From a virus (Duplodnaviria; Heunggongvirae; Uroviricota; Caudoviricetes), in the IMG/VR virus record IMGVR_UViG_2703718834_000006: a DNA stretch of 10,513 nt; one strand, given 5' to 3'. Below are positions 2,453 through 10,513 of the stretch, in pieces (position 1 is the first letter of the stretch; the number at the start of each line of letters is the position of its first letter). The translations under genes and the position numbers were made by a program. The notes below the pieces were generated by a model, which was not told the origin of the DNA, made no database searches, and saw only the letters and a list, made by a program, of their open reading frames with translations.

Positions 2453-3094
2453 TCAAAGCAACGGGATTTCAAGGTAAACTGCGGTTGCCAAAATACTAAC
2501 ATCTTCATTTCTAACAAGAATATTAGGATACATTGGGTTTAGGGATACTAGGTTTGTCTCTATTTCACCAATGTAAACCTGTTTGAAGCTCAATATTTGC
2601 TCTTTATCCAAAGATGCTATTACATAATCTTTGCTTTTAGCTTTTACTAGAGGGCTGAACGTGACAACCGATCCTCTGGGAAAGCTAATACCTGAACTTG
2701 TAGTCATAGCTTCACCTTCAATAGTCAATGCAAATGCAGAGTCACCAACATTGTATATTGCCGGATGAAATCTAGACGATGAATGTTCACCTGTGTTTAG
2801 GTAATGCATAACTTCATCTAGTTTGAGGATTGGTATTTGCTTTACCAGAACGTCAGGCATGACGTTTTTTGTTCCCGGCCCCTGGCCTTCACCCAGAGCT
2901 AACCACTCAGCCGTAGTGCCTAATGCGTTGGCTAATGCCTGCAATACACGAAGCCGTGGTTTAGCCTCACCACCCTCGTATGCAGCTATTTGACGTTGAA
3001 CAACACCAGCTAATTTTGACAACTGCGCCTGCGTCATACCCCTCGACTGTCTTGCCAGAGATACTCTTGATGGGAATTGATCGTCAAAATTCAT
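2453..3094 (-). CDS. Lambda-CI/LexA-like repressor: N-terminal XRE-type HTH plus C-terminal S24-peptidase-like domain with Ser-to-Ala at the nucleophile position (predicted non-cleavable)
   Basis: 213 aa. N-terminus (residues ~10-65) has a Cro/C1-type HTH pattern (MTQAQLSKLAGVVQRQIAAYEGGEAKPRLRVLQALANALGTTAEWL). C-terminus aligns with lambda CI from memory: DSAFALTIEGEAM vs DSAFWLEVEGNSM, ISFPRGSVV vs PSFPDGMLI, SFKQVY..LVSLNPMYP vs [22 protein letters not shown]. Lys171 corresponds to CI K192, but the Ser149 position is Ala129. No A-G or C-G dipeptide in the linker. GGTGA ribosome-binding site upstream of the ATG at 3094. Confidence 0.8.
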   Translation of the reverse strand: MNFDDQFPSRVSLARQSRGMTQAQLSKLAGVVQRQIAAYEGGEAKPRLRVLQALANALGTTAEWLALGEGQGPGTKNVMPDVLVKQIPILKLDEVMHYLNTGEHSSSRFHPAIYNVGDSAFALTIEGEAMTTSSGISFPRGSVVTFSPLVKAKSKDYVIASLDKEQILSFKQVYIGEIETNLVSLNPMYPNILVRNEDVSILATAVYLEIPLL

Positions 3095-3193
3095 TAGTTC
3101 ACCATAAAAAATTCATTGACTCATACTGAGTGTGAGTGAATAATCAAACCTCAAAAAGTGAGATTATGAGTTTTTCAAAAACAGGAGTGCATA
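3095..3193. promoter_or_regulatory. Divergent promoter/operator region between the CI-like gene and arc-ant; candidate Pant-like promoter TTGACT(3116-3121)-N17-AATAAT(3139-3144) with overlapping palindrome and tandem repeats
   Basis: Rightward -35/-10 pair with 17-bp spacing. Palindrome ACTCA-TAC-TGAGT at 3119-3131 overlaps the -35 and spacer, followed directly by tandem TGAGTG TGAGTG (3127-3138), with further GTGAG/TGAG copies at 3158-3170. Operator-like arrangement inside a core promoter, as with the Arc/Mnt operators at P22 Pant. Identified by eye, not scored. Confidence 0.4.
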
Positions 3194-3367
3194 ATGACTG
3201 AAAAGATATCTTCCATCAAGCCGCGTCAGGTTCGTTTTACAGAAAAGGTTGATTCACATATCCGCGAATCAGCAAAAAGATGCCATAGGTCAATTCAGGC
3301 AGAGATAGCTTATCGAATGGAGTTATTAATGAAACTTGAGGCAAAGGGCGATGTTGTCATCCAATAA
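3194..3367 (+). CDS. arc: Arc-like ribbon-helix-helix repressor (57 aa); absent from the supplied ORF track
   Basis: ATG at 3194 preceded by AGGAG (3183-3187) at 6-nt spacing; stop TAA at 3365-3367. Translation: MTEKISSIKPRQVRFTEKVDSHIRESAKRCHRSIQAEIAYRMELLMKLEAKGDVVIQ. Layout matches an RHH fold (N-terminal beta strand then two helices) and resembles P22 Arc (..RSVNSEIYQRVMESFKKEGR..) in the RS..EI and K-G motifs. Lies immediately upstream of ant, as in P22. Confidence 0.6.
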   Translation: MTEKISSIKPRQVRFTEKVDSHIRESAKRCHRSIQAEIAYRMELLMKLEAKGDVVIQ

Positions 3368-3369
3368 AA

Positions 3370-3440
3370 ATAGTGAAGCCCGGCAGTGCGCGAACACAAA
3401 CCGGGCCTCTATGTCAGTAACCGTATGCAAGGAAACTAAC
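3370..3440 (-). ncRNA. Candidate sar-like antisense RNA covering the arc-ant spacer and the ant ribosome-binding site (inferred)
   Basis: On the minus strand an extended -10 element TGcTACAAT (complement of 3447-3455) would start transcription near 3440. It would run through the complement of the ant Shine-Dalgarno/start (3429-3443) and end at the GC-rich hairpin 3378-3406, which on this strand is followed by TTCACTATTTTTA. Predicted length about 70 nt, the size and location of the P22 sar RNA. No expression evidence. Confidence 0.3.
3378..3406. terminator. GC-rich stem-loop in the arc-ant spacer; likely intrinsic terminator for leftward (antisense) transcription and possible attenuator of arc read-through
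   Basis: GCCCGG (3378-3383) pairs with CCGGGC (3401-3406); an inner GTG/CAC pairing is possible within the loop. A T-rich tract follows only on the minus strand (complement of 3365-3377). Confidence 0.35.
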
Positions 3441-4067
3441 ATGAATATTGTAGCAAAATCAGATTACAACTTCCACGGAGTTGAGTTGGTGCCCACCCGT
3501 GATATGCATGGTGTTTGGTTTACATCATCTAATATTGCATCTGCACTTAAATATGCAAATAGCCGTGCAGTAACAATGATTTATAACAAGTATAGCGATG
3601 AGTTTAGCGCCGGGATGACTCAGGTACTCGAAGTGAGTACCTCAGGAAATTATCGCAAAAAAGTGCGAGTTTTCTCACTACGCGGTGCCCACCTAATCGC
3701 GATGTTTGCTCGCACTCCGGTAGCCAAAGAGTTCCGCCGCTGGGTGCTGGATATTTTGGATCGGCAGGCAGAATGCTCACCGATTGCAAAACAGTTCACT
3801 GACGAAGAGCTGGTTAATCTCTGCTACTTACAATTGTGGATGGAGAAGAGTCAACAAATGTGCAAACACATCTACCCAGGAATGAAGCAAATTGGTTCTG
3901 AGCTTTCAGGAAGGATTTACGATATTGCATATGAGACTCGCTACATGTCAGAAGAAACCAAGAAATCACTTCTTCGTGAAATGAAGAATCTTGATACCAA
4001 CAATTTTGTCGTAAAGAACGCTCAGCCAATGCTGGCAAAACTGCGCGGCGAGGAATGGATTCATTGA
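3441..4067 (+). CDS. ant: Antirepressor Ant (Bro-N / AntA-type N-terminal domain)
   Basis: ATG at 3441 with AAGGAA ribosome-binding site at 3429-3434. The track's 3336 start is a TTG that overlaps arc and is rejected. N-terminus YNFHGVELVPTRDMHGVWFTSSNIASALKYANSRAVTMIYNKY...VRVFSLRGAHLIAMFARTPVAKEFRRWVLDILD matches the Bro-N/AntA antirepressor pattern (FxF..., WF.a.dva.aL, rG.lia.f..tp.a.efrrWv). Sits downstream of arc. Confidence 0.8.
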   Translation: MNIVAKSDYNFHGVELVPTRDMHGVWFTSSNIASALKYANSRAVTMIYNKYSDEFSAGMTQVLEVSTSGNYRKKVRVFSLRGAHLIAMFARTPVAKEFRRWVLDILDRQAECSPIAKQFTDEELVNLCYLQLWMEKSQQMCKHIYPGMKQIGSELSGRIYDIAYETRYMSEETKKSLLREMKNLDTNNFVVKNAQPMLAKLRGEEWIH

Positions 4068-4154
4068 TTGGTGCACAGGACGGCGCAAAAGAAAACCGCC
4101 AGTGTGCTGCTGGCGGCCTATGTCACACCCTTACTACCACATAAGGAATGCCTA

Positions 4155-4883
4155 ATGACTTTTAAGAATGTAGCAAACATCGGATCCGTTGTCACGGATA
4201 AAACCATTGACAGCCAGCGCCTGCTTGAGATGGTAAATCAGGCTCGTAGACAGTGCGGTGAGCCGGAGGTTCGTAATAACAAATTCATCGAGAAAATTGA
4301 AGATGAATTGGATGGAGAGCACTACACAAAAAGTGTAGTGCAAAAAGCGAACAAAACTTCGATGGTTATCATTGAGATGTCAATCAAGCAAGCATTGCGA
4401 GTTGCCGCTCGCGAGTCAAAAGCCGTTCGCCGCTCACTGGTAGACCAACTTGAAAGCATGCAAGAAGCGCACATTAAAAGCGGTAAATCAGCGAGTGGAC
4501 TTGTTGAGTATCGTCAAGCGCGAACATTGAAAATGACGGTTGAAGCTGTTACCAATCTGTTCGATCTGATGCCAAATCTTGCGCCTGAGGCAAAGCAGAC
4601 AGCGGCAGCAAGTATAATCAACCCGCTCGTTGGTTTTAATGCAATACCTCTTCCGGCAATAGAAGAGCATTACTACTCAGCAGGGGAGGTTGCAGAGCAG
4701 CTTGGAGTAACGGCCAACAAGATTGGTCGCATTGCTAACGCAAACAACCTCAAAACTGAGCAGTACGGGAAGTTCTTCCTGGATAAATCTGCGCATTCCA
4801 GCAAACAGGTGGAAGCATTCCGCTACAATGCGGAAGGCGTTAAAGCACTACAACACCTGATTCATGGGAGTAATGTTGCATAA
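4155..4883 (+). CDS. Hypothetical phage regulatory protein with C-terminal KilAC (ANT)-like HTH segment; possible second antirepressor-type protein
   Basis: ATG at 4155 with AAGGAA at 4143-4148. The track's 4068 start is a TTG directly after the ant stop and is rejected. The C-terminal stretch YYSAGEVAEQLGVTANKIGRIANANNLKTEQYGKFF resembles the KilAC-domain motif of phage antirepressors (..tEiAkelGvsa..lnk.L...g......g). The N-terminal 150 aa are not recognised. Confidence 0.5.
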   Translation: MTFKNVANIGSVVTDKTIDSQRLLEMVNQARRQCGEPEVRNNKFIEKIEDELDGEHYTKSVVQKANKTSMVIIEMSIKQALRVAARESKAVRRSLVDQLESMQEAHIKSGKSASGLVEYRQARTLKMTVEAVTNLFDLMPNLAPEAKQTAAASIINPLVGFNAIPLPAIEEHYYSAGEVAEQLGVTANKIGRIANANNLKTEQYGKFFLDKSAHSSKQVEAFRYNAEGVKALQHLIHGSNVA

Positions 4884-5104
4884 TGGCAAAGAAAAAATAT
4901 GGCATTATGCCGCCAAGAATCAAAGGAAGAGCTAGGGTAAAAGGTGATGCTGGAAGGTATCACATTCTTGGAGTTCTGTGGCATGAGAGAGCTTTAATTT
5001 TAAGTAGACCTCATGGGTACATTGAAAAGGTATCTATAGATAGAGTAGAGATTCTTCCCCTTACACCTGAAGAAGAAGAAACGTACGGACTTTTTGATAA
5101 CTAA
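4883..5104 (+). CDS. Hypothetical small basic protein (73 aa), translationally coupled to the upstream gene
   Basis: Its ATG overlaps the upstream TAA in ATAATGG (4881-4885). Basic N-terminus (MAKKKYGIMPPRIKGRARVKGDAGR) and acidic C-terminus (TPEEEETYGLFDN). Followed by a strong intrinsic terminator. No family recognised. Confidence 0.45.
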   Translation: MAKKKYGIMPPRIKGRARVKGDAGRYHILGVLWHERALILSRPHGYIEKVSIDRVEILPLTPEEEETYGLFDN

Positions 5105-5110
5105 CCAACT

Positions 5111-5137
5111 AAACCCGCTTAATCGCGGGTTTTTTCT
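5111..5137 (+). terminator. Rho-independent terminator ending the arc-ant-orf-orf operon; hairpin overlaps the mnt stop codon on the opposite strand
   Basis: AAACCCGC-TTAATC-GCGGGTTTTTTCTTTT: stem CCCGC/GCGGG flanked by A/T pairs, followed by a run of six T (5130-5135). On the minus strand only TTT follows, so termination is probably mainly rightward. Confidence 0.75.
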
Positions 5138-5376
5138 TTTCTAAGGATATCAGCCGCAACTTCTTTTACTCGTTCCGAGATTAATGAGGCCAGCCTCTCT
5201 TCTTCATCACGATACCCGCTTACAGGTGGTGGTTTGGAGAGTGATTCTTCCATCGTAGCCACAATTTCGGAATTGATAGACCTGTTATTCATTTTTGCAC
5301 GCTGTTTAATCTTGGCGTGCAACTCGTGCGTAAGCCTCAAGTGGAACTGCGCCTCATCGTATTTGCTGTACATCAT
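5119..5376 (-). CDS. mnt: Mnt-like ribbon-helix-helix repressor (85 aa)
   Basis: MMYSKYDEAQFHLRLTHELHAKIKQRAKMNNRSINSEIVATMEESLSKPPPVSGYRDEEERLASLISERVKEVAADILRKEKTRD aligns along its length with P22 Mnt as recalled (..PHFNFRMPMEVREKLKFRAEANGRSMNSELLQIVQDALSKPSPVTGYRNDAERLA..). Start is ATGATG at 5376/5373 with a GAGG ribosome-binding site. The 217-aa track ORF (5119-5772) is an in-frame upstream extension and is rejected. Confidence 0.8.
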   Translation of the reverse strand: MMYSKYDEAQFHLRLTHELHAKIKQRAKMNNRSINSEIVATMEESLSKPPPVSGYRDEEERLASLISERVKEVAADILRKEKTRD

Positions 5377-5462
5377 CAATGCCTCACCAAATGGGTGGAA
5401 TGGCATCGTAAAACCTACTGTACAAATCAACAATCGTACCGTTTCGGTATGCAACAAATACC

Positions 5463-5478
5463 AACCGTGGCCACGCTG
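5463..5478. promoter_or_regulatory. Palindromic candidate operator (perfect 10-bp core CGTGGCCACG at 5466-5475) between mnt and the tailspike gene
   Basis: AACCGTGG|CCACGCTG. GC-rich dyad symmetry built from GTGG/CCAC elements, the same elements that make up the P22 Mnt operator half-sites, though in the opposite relative order. Lies about 90 bp upstream of the mnt start and about 35 bp upstream of the tailspike start. Confidence 0.3.
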
Positions 5479-5508
5479 CGGCGATTCATTGTATCTGGAG
5501 CAAATTAA

Positions 5509-7569
5509 ATGACAGACATTACAGCCAATGTTGTAGTAAGCATGCCTTCGCAACTCTTCACTATGGCTCGTTCTTTTAAAGCCGTAGCTAATGGAAAGAT
5601 TTATATCGGAAAAATTGACACTGATCCGGTAAATACTGAAAACCAGATTCAGGTTTATGTGGAGAACGAAGACGGCTCTCACGTTCCTGTTTCGCAACCA
5701 ATCATCATTAACGCTGCTGGTTACCCGGTATATAACGGACAGATTGCCAAATTCGTTACCGTGCAAGGCCATTCTATGGCTGTTTATGATGCATATGGTG
5801 CGCAGCAGTTCTATTTTCCGAATGTGCTGAAGTATGACCCTGATCAGTTCAAAGTTTTACTGACAGGGAACGAAGGTTCGACATATATTGGAGATGGCGC
5901 AGGAACTGTAAGCGATTCGCTAAGAAGCTTGGAACATGAGTTTGAACTAATCCAAAGTTTGGATGAAAGGCCAAATCCACCACCTACAGAAGGATATTCA
6001 GGGTATAAGCGCTGGAACCCGATTCATGAAGATGGTTTTCAACTTGGCAGATATACGTTTAAAACTCCAACGCATGTTGATTTTCAGTTTGTATGCGACC
6101 CAATAAATAGTGACATTGGACCAATATTTTCTATGGGCATGGATGGTATAGATCAGCGATCAGCATTTTTTTCTCAAGACAGCTATGAAATTAGAAATGT
6201 AATGATGGATGGGGGGACGGCAAAGCTTGTTGAATTTGAGCCATGGACATCTCATATGGCAACAGTAGAGAAATGTCGTGTTATCAATCCTGAAGATAGC
6301 AACGAGTGGGTAGTTAATTTTAAAGCACAAAATTGGTGGCCACATATTATAAATAATACATACATGGAATATAACGATCACGCCAATAATTTTGTCAAGG
6401 CAATTGATGATGGTGGTAACACAACAGATAGATATTCAGGAAATAGTAGGCTTTTTATTGCATTTAATAGATGTGCATGGCAGGGTGGTAGCGCTGTCGG
6501 TACTGGCATTATGTCATATACATCTGCTGTCGCAACGAGAATAAAAGACAACTCCGCACAGAATGCAAAAACATGCGTTATTTTTGGATATCCATCAACG
6601 TTTTCTTCAGTTGATGGACTTTATTGCGAGATGGCATTTGGACACCAACAAGTCGTACAAATTGGCGATTCAGAAACGACATCGCAGCAGATACTGACTG
6701 ACATTACTATAAATGATGTTTATGCTAATTTACATGGCATAAACTCAAACAGAATAATTGTTGCTGGGAATGATGATGTGATAATGAACTATTTGGAGGT
6801 TGACAAGATATTTATTTCAAATATTCCAGGGTCAGGTTTTATTCAGCCAATAATATCAATTAACGATTTGCCATATCAAAAGATTGTTGCAGGAAGGATT
6901 ACTGCTGAAAATATGCCGCTTCTTCCGTTAACATCCAACCATGTTTCTGTTATTGATAAATACAACGCAGATATACCAGCTCTGAATGGTGACATTATTT
7001 ATATAGAGAACAGTACAGTAAGTATTCCTCCCAACTCATCAACTGCTGTTGCTCCTGGATGGTTTGTAAGATCAACATCTAATACAGTGTTTACTAGGAG
7101 TGGTGCAGGGACTCCAAACAATGCATTGAGAATGAGTCGTTATATTGCATCTGTTCTTAGTAATGCTGGCGCAACGACATCGATTACATTCGAACATCCA
7201 CGAGCCGACTTGGTGAATGGTGAGGCAGTGACAGTCCAGGCTTTGTTTAACGCTGATGTTGAACTAACATTTTTAGTGCACATATATGTAGCAAATGACA
7301 ATGGAGCAAGAACTACACTACTTTCAAAAACATTAGTAGGTGGAGGCTCGTGGAAGGAAATGACCTTTACGGTTGGAGTTTCAGGGGTTGAAAATACTAA
7401 ATCATGTATAGTTGTAGAGATCGGAGCCACAACACCATACTCTACTAATATTTTTGTCACAGGGCATCGCATGAACAGAGGTCGCTTTGGCCTGTGCGGA
7501 GCGGCTAATACTTTTAGCTACGCTGAAACTGAAAGGATGAAGTCGGATTATGATTATATAACCCCATAG
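5509..7569 (+). CDS. Tailspike protein: P22-type N-terminal head-binding domain fused to a divergent receptor-binding domain
   Basis: 686 aa; GGAG ribosome-binding site 9 nt upstream. Residues 1-116 ([42 protein letters not shown]...[15 protein letters not shown]...[10 protein letters not shown]) are near-identical to the P22 gp9 head-binding domain as recalled. After about nt 5857 the sequence has no resemblance to the P22 endorhamnosidase domain and becomes visibly AT-rich. Confidence 0.9.
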
Positions 7570-8064: not shown

Positions 8065-9075
8065 CTAACCTTCAGCTACTATAATTTCTTTTCTCTTTCT
8101 TCTTAAGAACGGCTTTTCGATATAATAATAAGAAACAGTCGCCAGTAATGTAGTTGCAAAAAGACTAAGAGCTATGGATGGGATGAATTTATTAGTTATA
8201 TTATTTATAATGATCTGTTGTACTGGGAATGCGTATATATACAAACCATAAGATATATCAATCCTTCCGTTTATAACCCTGTCTTTAATGGTTAGGCCAA
8301 GAACAATAATTATAACAGACAAACATAGTGGCGCTACAATTTGTATTTCCGGCTTACCAGTCACGGCAATAAGCAACAATAAGGCAGTAATGAACACTTG
8401 CTTTTTATACTTCAACCATGACTCAGTAGTCATTGACAATAAAGCACCAAAAAAGAATGGCATGCCAAATAATGATAATGATTTAAAAGGCACACTAAAA
8501 TATGTGTAATTTTCAGGATAGAAGTTGAAAATTATTGTGGAAAGTATGCATGTAACTAATAATAAAGCAGGCCCGACCCATGTGAACGATATAGAGAGCG
8601 CAAGGCCAATTATTAGATAGCATGAAAATTCTATAGGCAGCGTCCAAAGGCTTCCATTAATAACATGAGGGTAAAAGTAATCAGAAAACACTCCATCCAC
8701 ATAACTCTGCAGGAAAAAAGTATTTCTTATGATATTTAAGTATGGCTGGGAAGAAAATAAATATGCGTAACTATTATTGGAGTTAAATTCTACTGCGACA
8801 AATAAATACATAACAACAGAGCATACAAATAATGCAGGAAATATACGCAGACACCTTTTCCTCATGAACTCGATAAACGAACCAGATGAATTAAAACTTT
8901 TTGGCATTAAGAAACCAGATAAACAAAAGAAAATTGCAACTGCGACCGCACCATAACTATCCCATTGAAGAAAAACAGGCTCATGATCACCAGATAACCT
9001 GAAGTGATGAGAAAATAAAACCATGTAGGCGGCGACATGTCTAATTATATCAAATGAATTATTTCGCTCGCTCAT
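8065..9075 (-). CDS. Integral-membrane acyltransferase family 3 protein (Oac-like; putative O-antigen acetylase for lysogenic conversion)
   Basis: 336 aa with about 10 predicted transmembrane helices. Carries acyltransferase-3 hallmark motifs: SFDIIRHVAAYMVLFSHH (R/H motif), YGAVAVAIFFCLSGFLM, RKRCLRIFPALF and SYGLYIYAFPVQ. Strong GAGGAG ribosome-binding site 5 nt upstream of the ATG at 9075. Very AT-rich. Position between tailspike and int matches oac in phage Sf6. Confidence 0.8.
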   Translation of the reverse strand: MSERNNSFDIIRHVAAYMVLFSHHFRLSGDHEPVFLQWDSYGAVAVAIFFCLSGFLMPKSFNSSGSFIEFMRKRCLRIFPALFVCSVVMYLFVAVEFNSNNSYAYLFSSQPYLNIIRNTFFLQSYVDGVFSDYFYPHVINGSLWTLPIEFSCYLIIGLALSISFTWVGPALLLVTCILSTIIFNFYPENYTYFSVPFKSLSLFGMPFFFGALLSMTTESWLKYKKQVFITALLLLIAVTGKPEIQIVAPLCLSVIIIVLGLTIKDRVINGRIDISYGLYIYAFPVQQIIINNITNKFIPSIALSLFATTLLATVSYYYIEKPFLRRKRKEIIVAEG

Positions 9076-9355: not shown

Positions 9356-10513
9356 TCACTCAACCTTTTCATCAATCCAGTCCGCCCACCATTGCATCAT
9401 TTCTCTGCGTTTATCGAGATACTGAGCATGGTTGTAAATCCCACGCACAGATCCGCCGTTGGCATGTGCCAGTTGCACTTCAATAGCGTCAGCAGGCCAT
9501 TCGTGCTCGTTCATAATTGTGCTGAATTCATGCCTGAATCCGTGACCGCTTTCCAGACCCTCATAGCCGATTTGTTTGATCACAAGCAATACCGCGTTCT
9601 CGCAGATTGGCTTCTTCTTATCGTTGCGCCCGGCAAAAACAAACTCTGATACTGGTTTAGTGATGGAGCTTAGCGTAGTGAGAAGTTCAACCACCTGGTC
9701 TGACATAGGAACCACATGAATCCTGCGTCCCTTCATCACACTGGCGTCGATAGTGATAATCCTGTTTTCAAAATCGACGTTCTTCCATAGCATGGAACGA
9801 AGCTCTTTCGTTCTTAGGGCAGTGTAGCGTAAAACTTTGGTCGCAATAAGCGATACGATACTTCCTGAAAATGTTGCCAGTGCTTTATTGAATGCTGGGA
9901 TCTGGTCGGCAGGTAAAAACGGGAAGTTTTTCTTGCGGTATCCCTTCATGGCGTCAGCAAGGTCAGGTGCCGGGTTATATTTAGCCCTACCGGTAACAAT
10001 AGCGTAACGGAAAACCTCGCCGCATCTTCTGCGTGCTTTATTGGCTCGCTCCATTGCACCGCGATCTTCAAACCTGCGGATTACTTCCAGCAGTTGCATA
10101 GGCTCAATATCCTGAATTTCAAGGCCGCCGATGATAGGTAAAATGTCGTCATCAAACATTTTTGCAAGTTCAGTTGCATAGCCTACTGACCAGACTTGCT
10201 TCTTGTGCTCGTACCATTCCTTGTAAATCGCACTAAAGGAATTGTTGTTAGACGAAGCCTTTTTCGCTTTTACCGGATCGATGCCAACCGAGATGTCTTT
10301 CCTCGCAGTCCATGCTTTATCCCTTGCCTCCTGCAAAGTCATAAGCGGATATTTTCCTACGGTCAGGATTTTCTCCTTACCGTCAATCTTGTAGCGAAGC
10401 TGCCATACCTTTTTCCCTGACACAGGGACATAAAGGTACAGGCCATTACCATCGAGTAGGCGGTATGGTTTTTCTTTCGGCTTTGCTGCTTCAATCTGCT
10501 TAACGGTGAGCAT
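9356..10513 (-). CDS. int: Tyrosine site-specific integrase (P4/P22-type, with N-terminal arm-binding domain); complete, start codon at the last bases of the window
   Basis: 385 aa. N-terminus MLTVKQIEAAKPKEKPYRLLDGNGLYLYVPVSGKKVWQLRYKIDGKEKILTVGKYPLMTLQEARDKA is the canonical start of P4-like integrases. C-terminus holds the catalytic region (HGFRHEFST...VQLAHANGGSVRGIYNHAQY) with the H-x-x-R and Tyr nucleophile context. Confidence 0.9.
   Translation of the reverse strand: MLTVKQIEAAKPKEKPYRLLDGNGLYLYVPVSGKKVWQLRYKIDGKEKILTVGKYPLMTLQEARDKAWTARKDISVGIDPVKAKKASSNNNSFSAIYKEWYEHKKQVWSVGYATELAKMFDDDILPIIGGLEIQDIEPMQLLEVIRRFEDRGAMERANKARRRCGEVFRYAIVTGRAKYNPAPDLADAMKGYRKKNFPFLPADQIPAFNKALATFSGSIVSLIATKVLRYTALRTKELRSMLWKNVDFENRIITIDASVMKGRRIHVVPMSDQVVELLTTLSSITKPVSEFVFAGRNDKKKPICENAVLLVIKQIGYEGLESGHGFRHEFSTIMNEHEWPADAIEVQLAHANGGSVRGIYNHAQYLDKRREMMQWWADWIDEKVE

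Follow-up and report, generated by a model that had tools for sequence, protein, structure and literature searches.

The 10,513-nt stretch of DNA analyzed here (the window) represents the right arm of an E. coli prophage of the P22-like (Lederbergvirus) group. The region to the left of its tailspike gene is probably, taking the explanation as a whole, the right-hand end of an "ant moron", namely a self-contained unit of mnt, its promoter Pmnt and a single operator (5436-5450), which lies back-to-back with the tailspike gene and has no arc-ant operon between it and that gene. A Mnt tetramer would bind GTACC-N5-GGTAT one base upstream of the weak −35 element of its own promoter, the P22-type rightward target promoter (Pant) would have decayed, and the role remaining to the operator would be to adjust how much Mnt the lysogen contains, i.e., autoregulation. 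The antirepressor operon that converges on mnt would have been acquired separately, with a repressor of its own, and would have only a terminator in common with mnt. A stem-loop with a palindrome at its tip would travel with the tailspike gene, whatever lies upstream.

Gene Order and Relatives of the Window

The window begins with the genes for a DNA-injection protein (1-1875, + strand), a sieA-like membrane protein (1898-2392, − strand) and a repressor with HTH and peptidase-S24 domains (2453-3094, − strand). The repressor gene is divergent from an operon on the + strand, which encodes RHH57, a ribbon-helix-helix protein of 57 amino acid residues (3194-3367), Ant (Bro-N + P22_AR_C; 3441-4067), a KilA-like protein (4155-4883) and orf73 (4883-5104). 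A hairpin terminator (5111-5132) and the mnt homologue of 85 amino acid residues (5119-5376, − strand) come next, and they are followed by the tailspike gene with its P22-type head-binding domain (5509-7569, + strand; Pfam Head_binding, E = 7e-67), an acyltransferase gene (8065-9075, − strand) and an integrase gene (9356-10513, − strand).

The closest sequenced phage was Escherichia phage JEP4, with 95% identity across 3000-5521, and one IMG/VR contig (L017) carried identical copies of nearly all proteins compared across this region. The set used for comparison consisted of 80 sequences, namely 79 IMG/VR loci found via the Mnt protein together with the window. When species-representative genomes were scanned with the Mnt protein, two loci only were obtained, from Citrobacter and Serratia.

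The mnt Gene and Its Product

The product of the gene at 5119-5376 matched the Arc family of Pfam (PF03869, E = 3.8e-14, residues 8-53), aligned with P22 Mnt without gaps at 45% identity (73 residues, 7-79; E = 5e-23) and had 1mnt as its best solved relative (residues 3-75, E = 1.6e-15). These matches agree and bear out the identification of the gene as a Mnt homologue in an earlier sequence-only reading of this DNA, all of whose statements about the sequence were correct, coordinates included. The protein has an N-terminal ribbon-helix-helix domain with the beta-strand residues QFHLRL, and its C-terminal part can be aligned with the tetramerisation region of P22 Mnt; like P22 Mnt, the homologue is predicted to act as a tetramer.

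A Shine-Dalgarno sequence, GGTGAGG, was read on the − strand at 5382-5388, in a region that is conserved among the relatives. It is overlapped by an imperfect inverted repeat in the mnt 5′ UTR (TCACC-AAATG-GGTGG, 5384-5399), for which the P22 equivalent is CACT-N7-AGTG; this repeat may fold into a small RNA hairpin around the ribosome-binding site of mnt.

The mnt reading frame was intact in 80 of the 80 loci, and its divergence per site was far lower at nonsynonymous positions (pN 0.02-0.19) than at synonymous ones (pS 0.56-0.84), the latter being saturated. The lone mnt is under strong purifying selection, which argues that the module is functional and most likely autoregulatory. The sole disrupted mnt that was seen belongs to a Citrobacter sp. 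(L217, 2501-2752) and has an in-frame stop (YSK*DE). The left arm of the operator is also mutated in that locus, to GTACT, and gene and site appear to decay together.

Predicted Operator and Promoters

A Mnt-type operator is very probably present in the spacer between mnt and the tailspike gene, as judged from sequence comparison. The predicted site, CGTACCGTTTCGGTATG, occupies 5435-5451, with the arms GTACC (5436-5440) and GGTAT (5446-5450) placed 5 bp apart; the right arm is an imperfect complement of GTACC. In a gapless alignment of the spacers, CTCAAT followed directly by AGGTCCACGGTGGACCT in P22 stood opposite AACAAT followed directly by CGTACCGTTTCGGTATG in the window. The P22 dyad (GGTCC-N5-GGACC) and the dyad of phages L, SE1 and Gally (AGACC-N5-GGTCT) have the offset and the 5-N5-5 geometry of the window site, and all three dyad types carry CC/GG at the inner arm positions. 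In P22 the dyad is located between the annotated Pant −10 (X01916) and arc. We take this P22 dyad to be the Mnt operator, Omnt (Vershon et al. 1987; Knight and Sauer 1989).

According to papers citing Knight and Sauer (1989), the beta-strand residues determine the specificity of Arc and Mnt. The beta-strand HFNFRM goes with the arm GGTCC in P22, QFNLRL with AGACC in L, SE1, Gally, L084 and L086, and QFHLRL with GTACC in the window and about 75 loci. Across these alleles, the sequence of the predicted arm co-varies with the beta-strand class at a constant offset. Among 78 sequences of the QFHLRL type, the arms RTACC/GGTAY were kept in all but one, and the central 5 bp varied (GTTTC, ATTTC, GTTTA, ATTTA, ATTTT and GTCTC). 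The arms thus persist despite the saturation of the synonymous sites of mnt. As shown by the alignment of 88 distinct spacers, conservation was high from the mnt start to ~5451 and collapsed to the right of it.

GTACC-N5-GGTAT at 5436-5450 was the sole perfect match in the window, and no second match was found across the 39-kb JEP4 genome. The promoter region of the ant operon (3095-3193) had no match at ≤3 mismatches. The sequence-only reading had proposed that the wiring differs from the control of Pant in P22, and this stands, with the predicted operator in the mnt-tailspike spacer and none at 3095-3193. Three near-matches were found in the window against 0.47 expected in shuffles. Inside orf73, AGACCTCATGGGTAC (5006-5020) is one mismatch from the operator pattern and combines an arm of the L/Gally type with one of the window type.

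A predicted Pmnt was assigned on the − strand at 5405-5433 by positional homology with P22. It reads TTGTTG (reverse complement of 5428-5433), 17 nt and TACGAT (reverse complement of 5405-5410), and its P22 counterpart is TTGAGA-17-TATCAT. The promoter is weak, with 7 of the 12 consensus positions, which is below the threshold of the consensus scan, so that it was not reported there; its −10 form TAnnAT was constant across all allele classes. The predicted operator starts one base upstream of the Pmnt −35 and is centered ~45 bp upstream of the predicted start. A stronger candidate by consensus on the − strand, CTGTCA(16)TACAAT (5515-5488, 9 of 12 positions), was rejected, given that its −35 coincides with the start codon region of the tailspike gene and that most relatives have TACAAG in place of its −10.

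On the + strand, the counterpart of P22 Pant at 5400-5428 is degenerate, with ATGGCA (5400-5405) and CAAATC (5423-5428) spaced by 17 nt in place of the TTGACA and TATATT of P22; it probably does not work as a promoter. The consensus scan found no promoter-like site on the + strand of the mnt-tailspike spacer, and the total number of sites that it returned equaled the shuffle expectation. With the Pant counterpart degenerate and no other + strand promoter in the spacer, Mnt would be left without a target in cis, save possibly its own promoter.

The GC-Rich Palindrome

The perfect 10-bp palindrome CGTGGCCACG, which the sequence-only reading had reported at 5466-5475, was located there by pattern search, its arms being too short for the inverted-repeat finder. 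Palindromes of this length are at chance frequency here: the window contains 14 perfect ones against 11.5 ± 3.2 in shuffles, and 9.8% of the shuffled copies of the 132-bp spacer hold one.

The same reading had taken the palindrome for the Mnt operator, at which bound Mnt would control its own promoter as well as tailspike expression, and we consider this highly unlikely. A perfect palindrome does lie in the spacer, and GTGG/CCAC is also found in the P22 operator. However, only 3 of the 80 sequences (the window, its twin L017, and L027) have it in perfect form, and with 77 of the 80 lacking it, the check proposed with that model, retention in otherwise conserved homologous loci, failed. At its position, JEP4 (Mnt 97.6% identical) has CGTAGCCATG, E. 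coli O111 strain 110512 (DNA 99.5% identical) has CGTAGCCACG and VSe13 (Mnt 95%) has CGTAACCACC; the nearest relatives with CGTAGCCATG or CGTAGCCACG have Mnt proteins that are 98-99% identical. Conversely, the palindrome is present together with an unrelated Mnt allele in the UMNF18 prophage of E. coli. This prophage has the order mnt-arc-ant-tailspike and the Mnt beta-strand PQVNLRLP; its leader is identical, including CGTGGCCACG, and directly follows tANT, and its mnt, of other specificity, is >1 kb away. Moreover, the palindrome falls to the right of the conservation boundary at ~5451, in the poorly conserved half of the spacer, and its half-sites are inverted without a spacer, whereas all three Mnt classes have 5-N5-5 sites. 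By sequence comparison, CGTGGCCACG differs by two substitutions from the common leader CGTAGCCATG, and the palindrome is best read as a chance variant of the tailspike leader, outside the predicted mnt-operator unit; the likely site of Mnt binding is the other dyad, at a distance of 20 bases.

The Tailspike Leader and Its Stem-Loop

The spacer between mnt and the tailspike ATG (5509) is 132 bp long and, as had been pointed out before, is at once the upstream region of mnt and the 5′ region of the tailspike gene. A tailspike Shine-Dalgarno sequence, GGAG (5497-5500, + strand), was read from the sequence and is invariant in the alignment. The 45 bases from 5464 to the ATG form a leader that moves together with the tailspike gene: of the 843 E. 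coli genomes with a match, about 780 aligned only from query position 365 (5464 of the window) rightward, and in HK620, CUS-3, N7 and P22 the leader stands directly after the ant terminator.

In the leader of the tailspike mRNA, a stem-loop, CCGUGGC-CAC-GCUGCGG, was predicted at 5465-5481 (+ strand), its apex being the palindrome at 5466-5475. Of 71 distinct leaders, almost all had a minimum-energy hairpin of 6-8 bp at a constant position in RNAfold, and among them were families of unrelated sequence such as the Sf101 type (GCAAUCA-CAUCA-UGGUUGC). In a MAFFT alignment of 18 representatives, which were picked by eye although the alignment itself is unbiased, five outer pairs were kept through G-C/G-U, C-G/U-G and A-U/G-U changes, and the two inner stem pairs varied as G-C/A-U/U-A and C-G/G-C/A-U. 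The wobble pairs work on the tailspike sense strand only. The folding energy of the window leader, taken as a single sequence, was about that of shuffles (z = −0.04), and an Rfam search of 5050-5600 found no relevant family, the sole match being a sub-threshold Trp_leader over the terminator. On balance, the stem-loop is somewhat more likely than otherwise to be a conserved RNA element, as its pairing pattern suggests. A function of the hairpin as a − strand terminator was rejected, given that relatives do not conserve the U-rich tail and that G-U pairing is possible on the + strand only.

The stem-loop was observed ~27-45 nt upstream of the tailspike start in the window, in L003, L005-L008, L010, L012 and L013, and in many IMG/VR loci. 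In the spacer between ant and gene 9 of P22 (L012, 1559-1768), AAAATTCACCGTAGCCAYGCT occurs twice, flanking ~100 bp, and L088 is alike; the doubling in P22 points to an insertion or a duplication where the tailspike leader begins. In JEP4 (L001, 6019-6210) and E. coli ET729 (L016), the head-binding tailspike reading frame ends after MTDII, and a different tail gene begins ~190 bp past the truncated frame; the receptor-binding module is replaced just inside the tailspike start in both.

The Antirepressor Operon and the Shared Hairpin

The mnt gene adjoined the tailspike gene in 79 of 79 checkable loci (one of the 80 IMG/VR loci is on a contig that ends before the tailspike start), and in most of them it lay ~118-134 bp from the start of a tailspike gene of the head-binding type, a few loci having insertions. 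The Ant/KilA-like operon was present in ~52 and absent from ~26 of the 80 mnt-tailspike loci, and orf73, RHH57 and the S24 repressor accompanied it in some loci and were missing in others. Given this constant adjacency and the variable left flank, the ant operon (3194-5104, + strand) is, by comparison of the loci, the insert, and mnt is the fixed neighbor of the tailspike gene. The description of Mnt as displaced in the sequence-only reading therefore had the direction the wrong way round. The Ant gene also occurs in Salmonella phage SPN3UB, with 94.5% identity.

JEP4 carries a separate immC C2 repressor, and for this reason the C2/LexA-like repressor at 2453-3094 looks like a dedicated repressor of the antirepressor operon, possibly RecA-cleavable. 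A 13-bp palindrome, ACTCATACTGAGT (3119-3131), overlaps the −35 of TTGACT(17)AATAAT (3116-3144). In E. coli O111 strain 110512 (L014, 1994-2146), a truncated second gene of the Arc/Mnt family replaces the S24 repressor, which indicates that the regulator of the ant operon is itself exchangeable; the Ant gene of this locus is interrupted by IS1203. One further IMG/VR locus (L082) has a mnt-tailspike spacer of 644 bp with a C-terminal antirepressor fragment right after the leader motif CGTAGCCACGCTGCGGCG. The fragment, between operator and tailspike gene, is a vestige of the rearrangements here, and the locus may be a transitional form linking the layouts that contain arc-ant with those that have mnt only.

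The hairpin at 5111-5132 consists of AAACCCGC-TTAATC-GCGGGTTT with a 6-nt loop, and the mnt stop codon TAA (reverse complement of 5119-5121) falls in this loop. On the + strand, the hairpin is followed by the T-run TTTCTTTTCT, makes a good terminator and closes the Ant/KilA-like/orf73 operon; the − strand has no more than TTT there, and then AGTTGG. The stop codon in the loop, the short TTT on the − strand and the convergence of mnt on the antirepressor operon had all been noted in the sequence-only reading and were found again, the hairpin being common to both transcription units. VSe13 has the same hairpin with the stop codon in the loop, without an ant operon upstream, and the annotation of phage L places a bidirectional terminator over the mnt end; the stop codon in the loop is thus a feature of the mnt module and not an adaptation to the ant operon. 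Transcription of mnt may interfere with the ant operon in antisense, but this is not a conserved property.

Function of the mnt Unit and Alternative Explanations

Autoregulation would most likely be the minimal function of the mnt unit; its sign and its existence are uncertain because the site, near −45, is at a non-classical position for repression. Autoregulation alone does not explain why a solitary repressor and its operator are so strongly constrained by purifying selection. It could be supposed that operator-bound Mnt, transcription running head-on from Pmnt and the hairpin terminator (5111-5132) together throttle the read-through of late or ant-operon transcripts into the tailspike gene, so that the pairing tunes tailspike dosage. 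The idea has precedent in the literature, and we regard it as unlikely. It would account for the adjacency in every checkable locus and for the purifying selection on gene and operator without an ant target, and any rightward transcription does have to cross the predicted operator, which is 58 bp upstream of the tailspike ATG. Late transcription in P22-like phages, however, is antiterminated and may ignore such obstacles, and the adjacency could go back to one old deletion or insertion that was inherited with the conserved head-binding module. In addition, Sf6 and APSE, which are without an ant moron, make tailspike normally according to the literature. An improbable account, too, is that the lone Mnt acts in trans as an immunity factor: P22-like phages with the same operator that superinfect the cell or reside in it would have their antirepressor promoter silenced, and the prophage would be shielded from induction by Ant. 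Silencing of superinfecting antirepressor promoters is an established role of prophage Mnt in P22, and a target elsewhere would suit a gene under strong purifying selection that has no target in cis besides mnt itself. Against it, no arc-ant operon behind a GTACC-N5-GGTA operator, and no mnt-arc-ant layout with a GTACC operator, was present among the matches listed (at least ~74 true ones, from IMG/VR). JEP4 has no second site, and the conservation of the resident operator would be left unexplained.

That the mnt unit is a decaying immI remnant without present function was raised as a possibility in the phage L genome paper for the mnt-like gene of that phage. The degenerate Pant counterpart and the one Citrobacter copy that is a pseudogene are in line with it, but it is very improbable in view of the reading frame that is intact in all 80 loci, the excess of pS over pN, with saturated synonymous sites that exclude very recent copies, and the operator arms that are kept while the neighboring spacer diverges. 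Purifying selection on the lone mnt beside the tailspike gene thus argues against the published suggestion. A broader proposal, which we consider improbable, is that lone mnt-operator units are no relics but selected and widespread partners of the tailspike genes of P22-like phages, which set amount or timing together with the leader stem-loop (by roadblock, head-on transcription and RNA element), and that the arc-ant layout of P22 is the derived exception. The reading that we favor is still the lone unit of mnt, Pmnt and operator described at the outset. The three beta-strand classes with their three arm sequences amount to a natural table of specificities for a ribbon-helix-helix repressor known from textbooks. 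The palindrome that had been flagged matters little, as it does not serve as a regulatory site and the layout has been described before.

Comparison with Known Systems

The immI region of P22-like phages has been summarized in the literature, where the "ant moron" zone is described as rapidly changing, ten types having been counted among sixteen genomes, and where mnt-only ant morons are reported in ST64T, ST104 and L. The immI region of P22 resembles the window in its homologous Mnt, in the leftward transcription of mnt from a weak promoter, and in the single 17-bp 5-N5-5 dyad one base upstream of the Pmnt −35, at an equal offset from the mnt start codon. Unlike P22, the window has no arc or ant downstream of the operator, the tailspike gene following directly; its counterparts of the Pant hexamers are degenerate, GTACC arms take the place of GGTCC, and the beta-strand of its Mnt belongs to the QFHLRL class and not to the HFNFRM class. 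A P22-type immI circuit would have a strong rightward arc-ant promoter whose start is overlapped by the operator, and no such promoter was found in the spacer, nor was an operator found at 3095-3193.

HK620, CUS-3, N7 and UMNF18 have the same leader of ~45 nt including the stem-loop, and in CUS-3 this segment is annotated as the boundary sequence bsq1. In these phages and prophages, the leader comes after an ant gene or an ant remnant, and not after a Mnt operator as in the window. Phages L, ST64T, ST104, SE1 and Gally are built just like the window at this point, with a lone mnt that diverges from the tailspike gene, ~130 bp of spacer and one dyad followed by the CCGTAGCCAYGCTGCGG leader. They differ from it in belonging to the QFNLRL class, with AGACC-N5-GGTCT, and in having no extra antirepressor operon that converges on mnt. 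With its lone divergent mnt and one spacer dyad, the window belongs with the mnt-only ant morons of the L/ST64T type, a layout that is already published and is ordinary for P22-like prophages.
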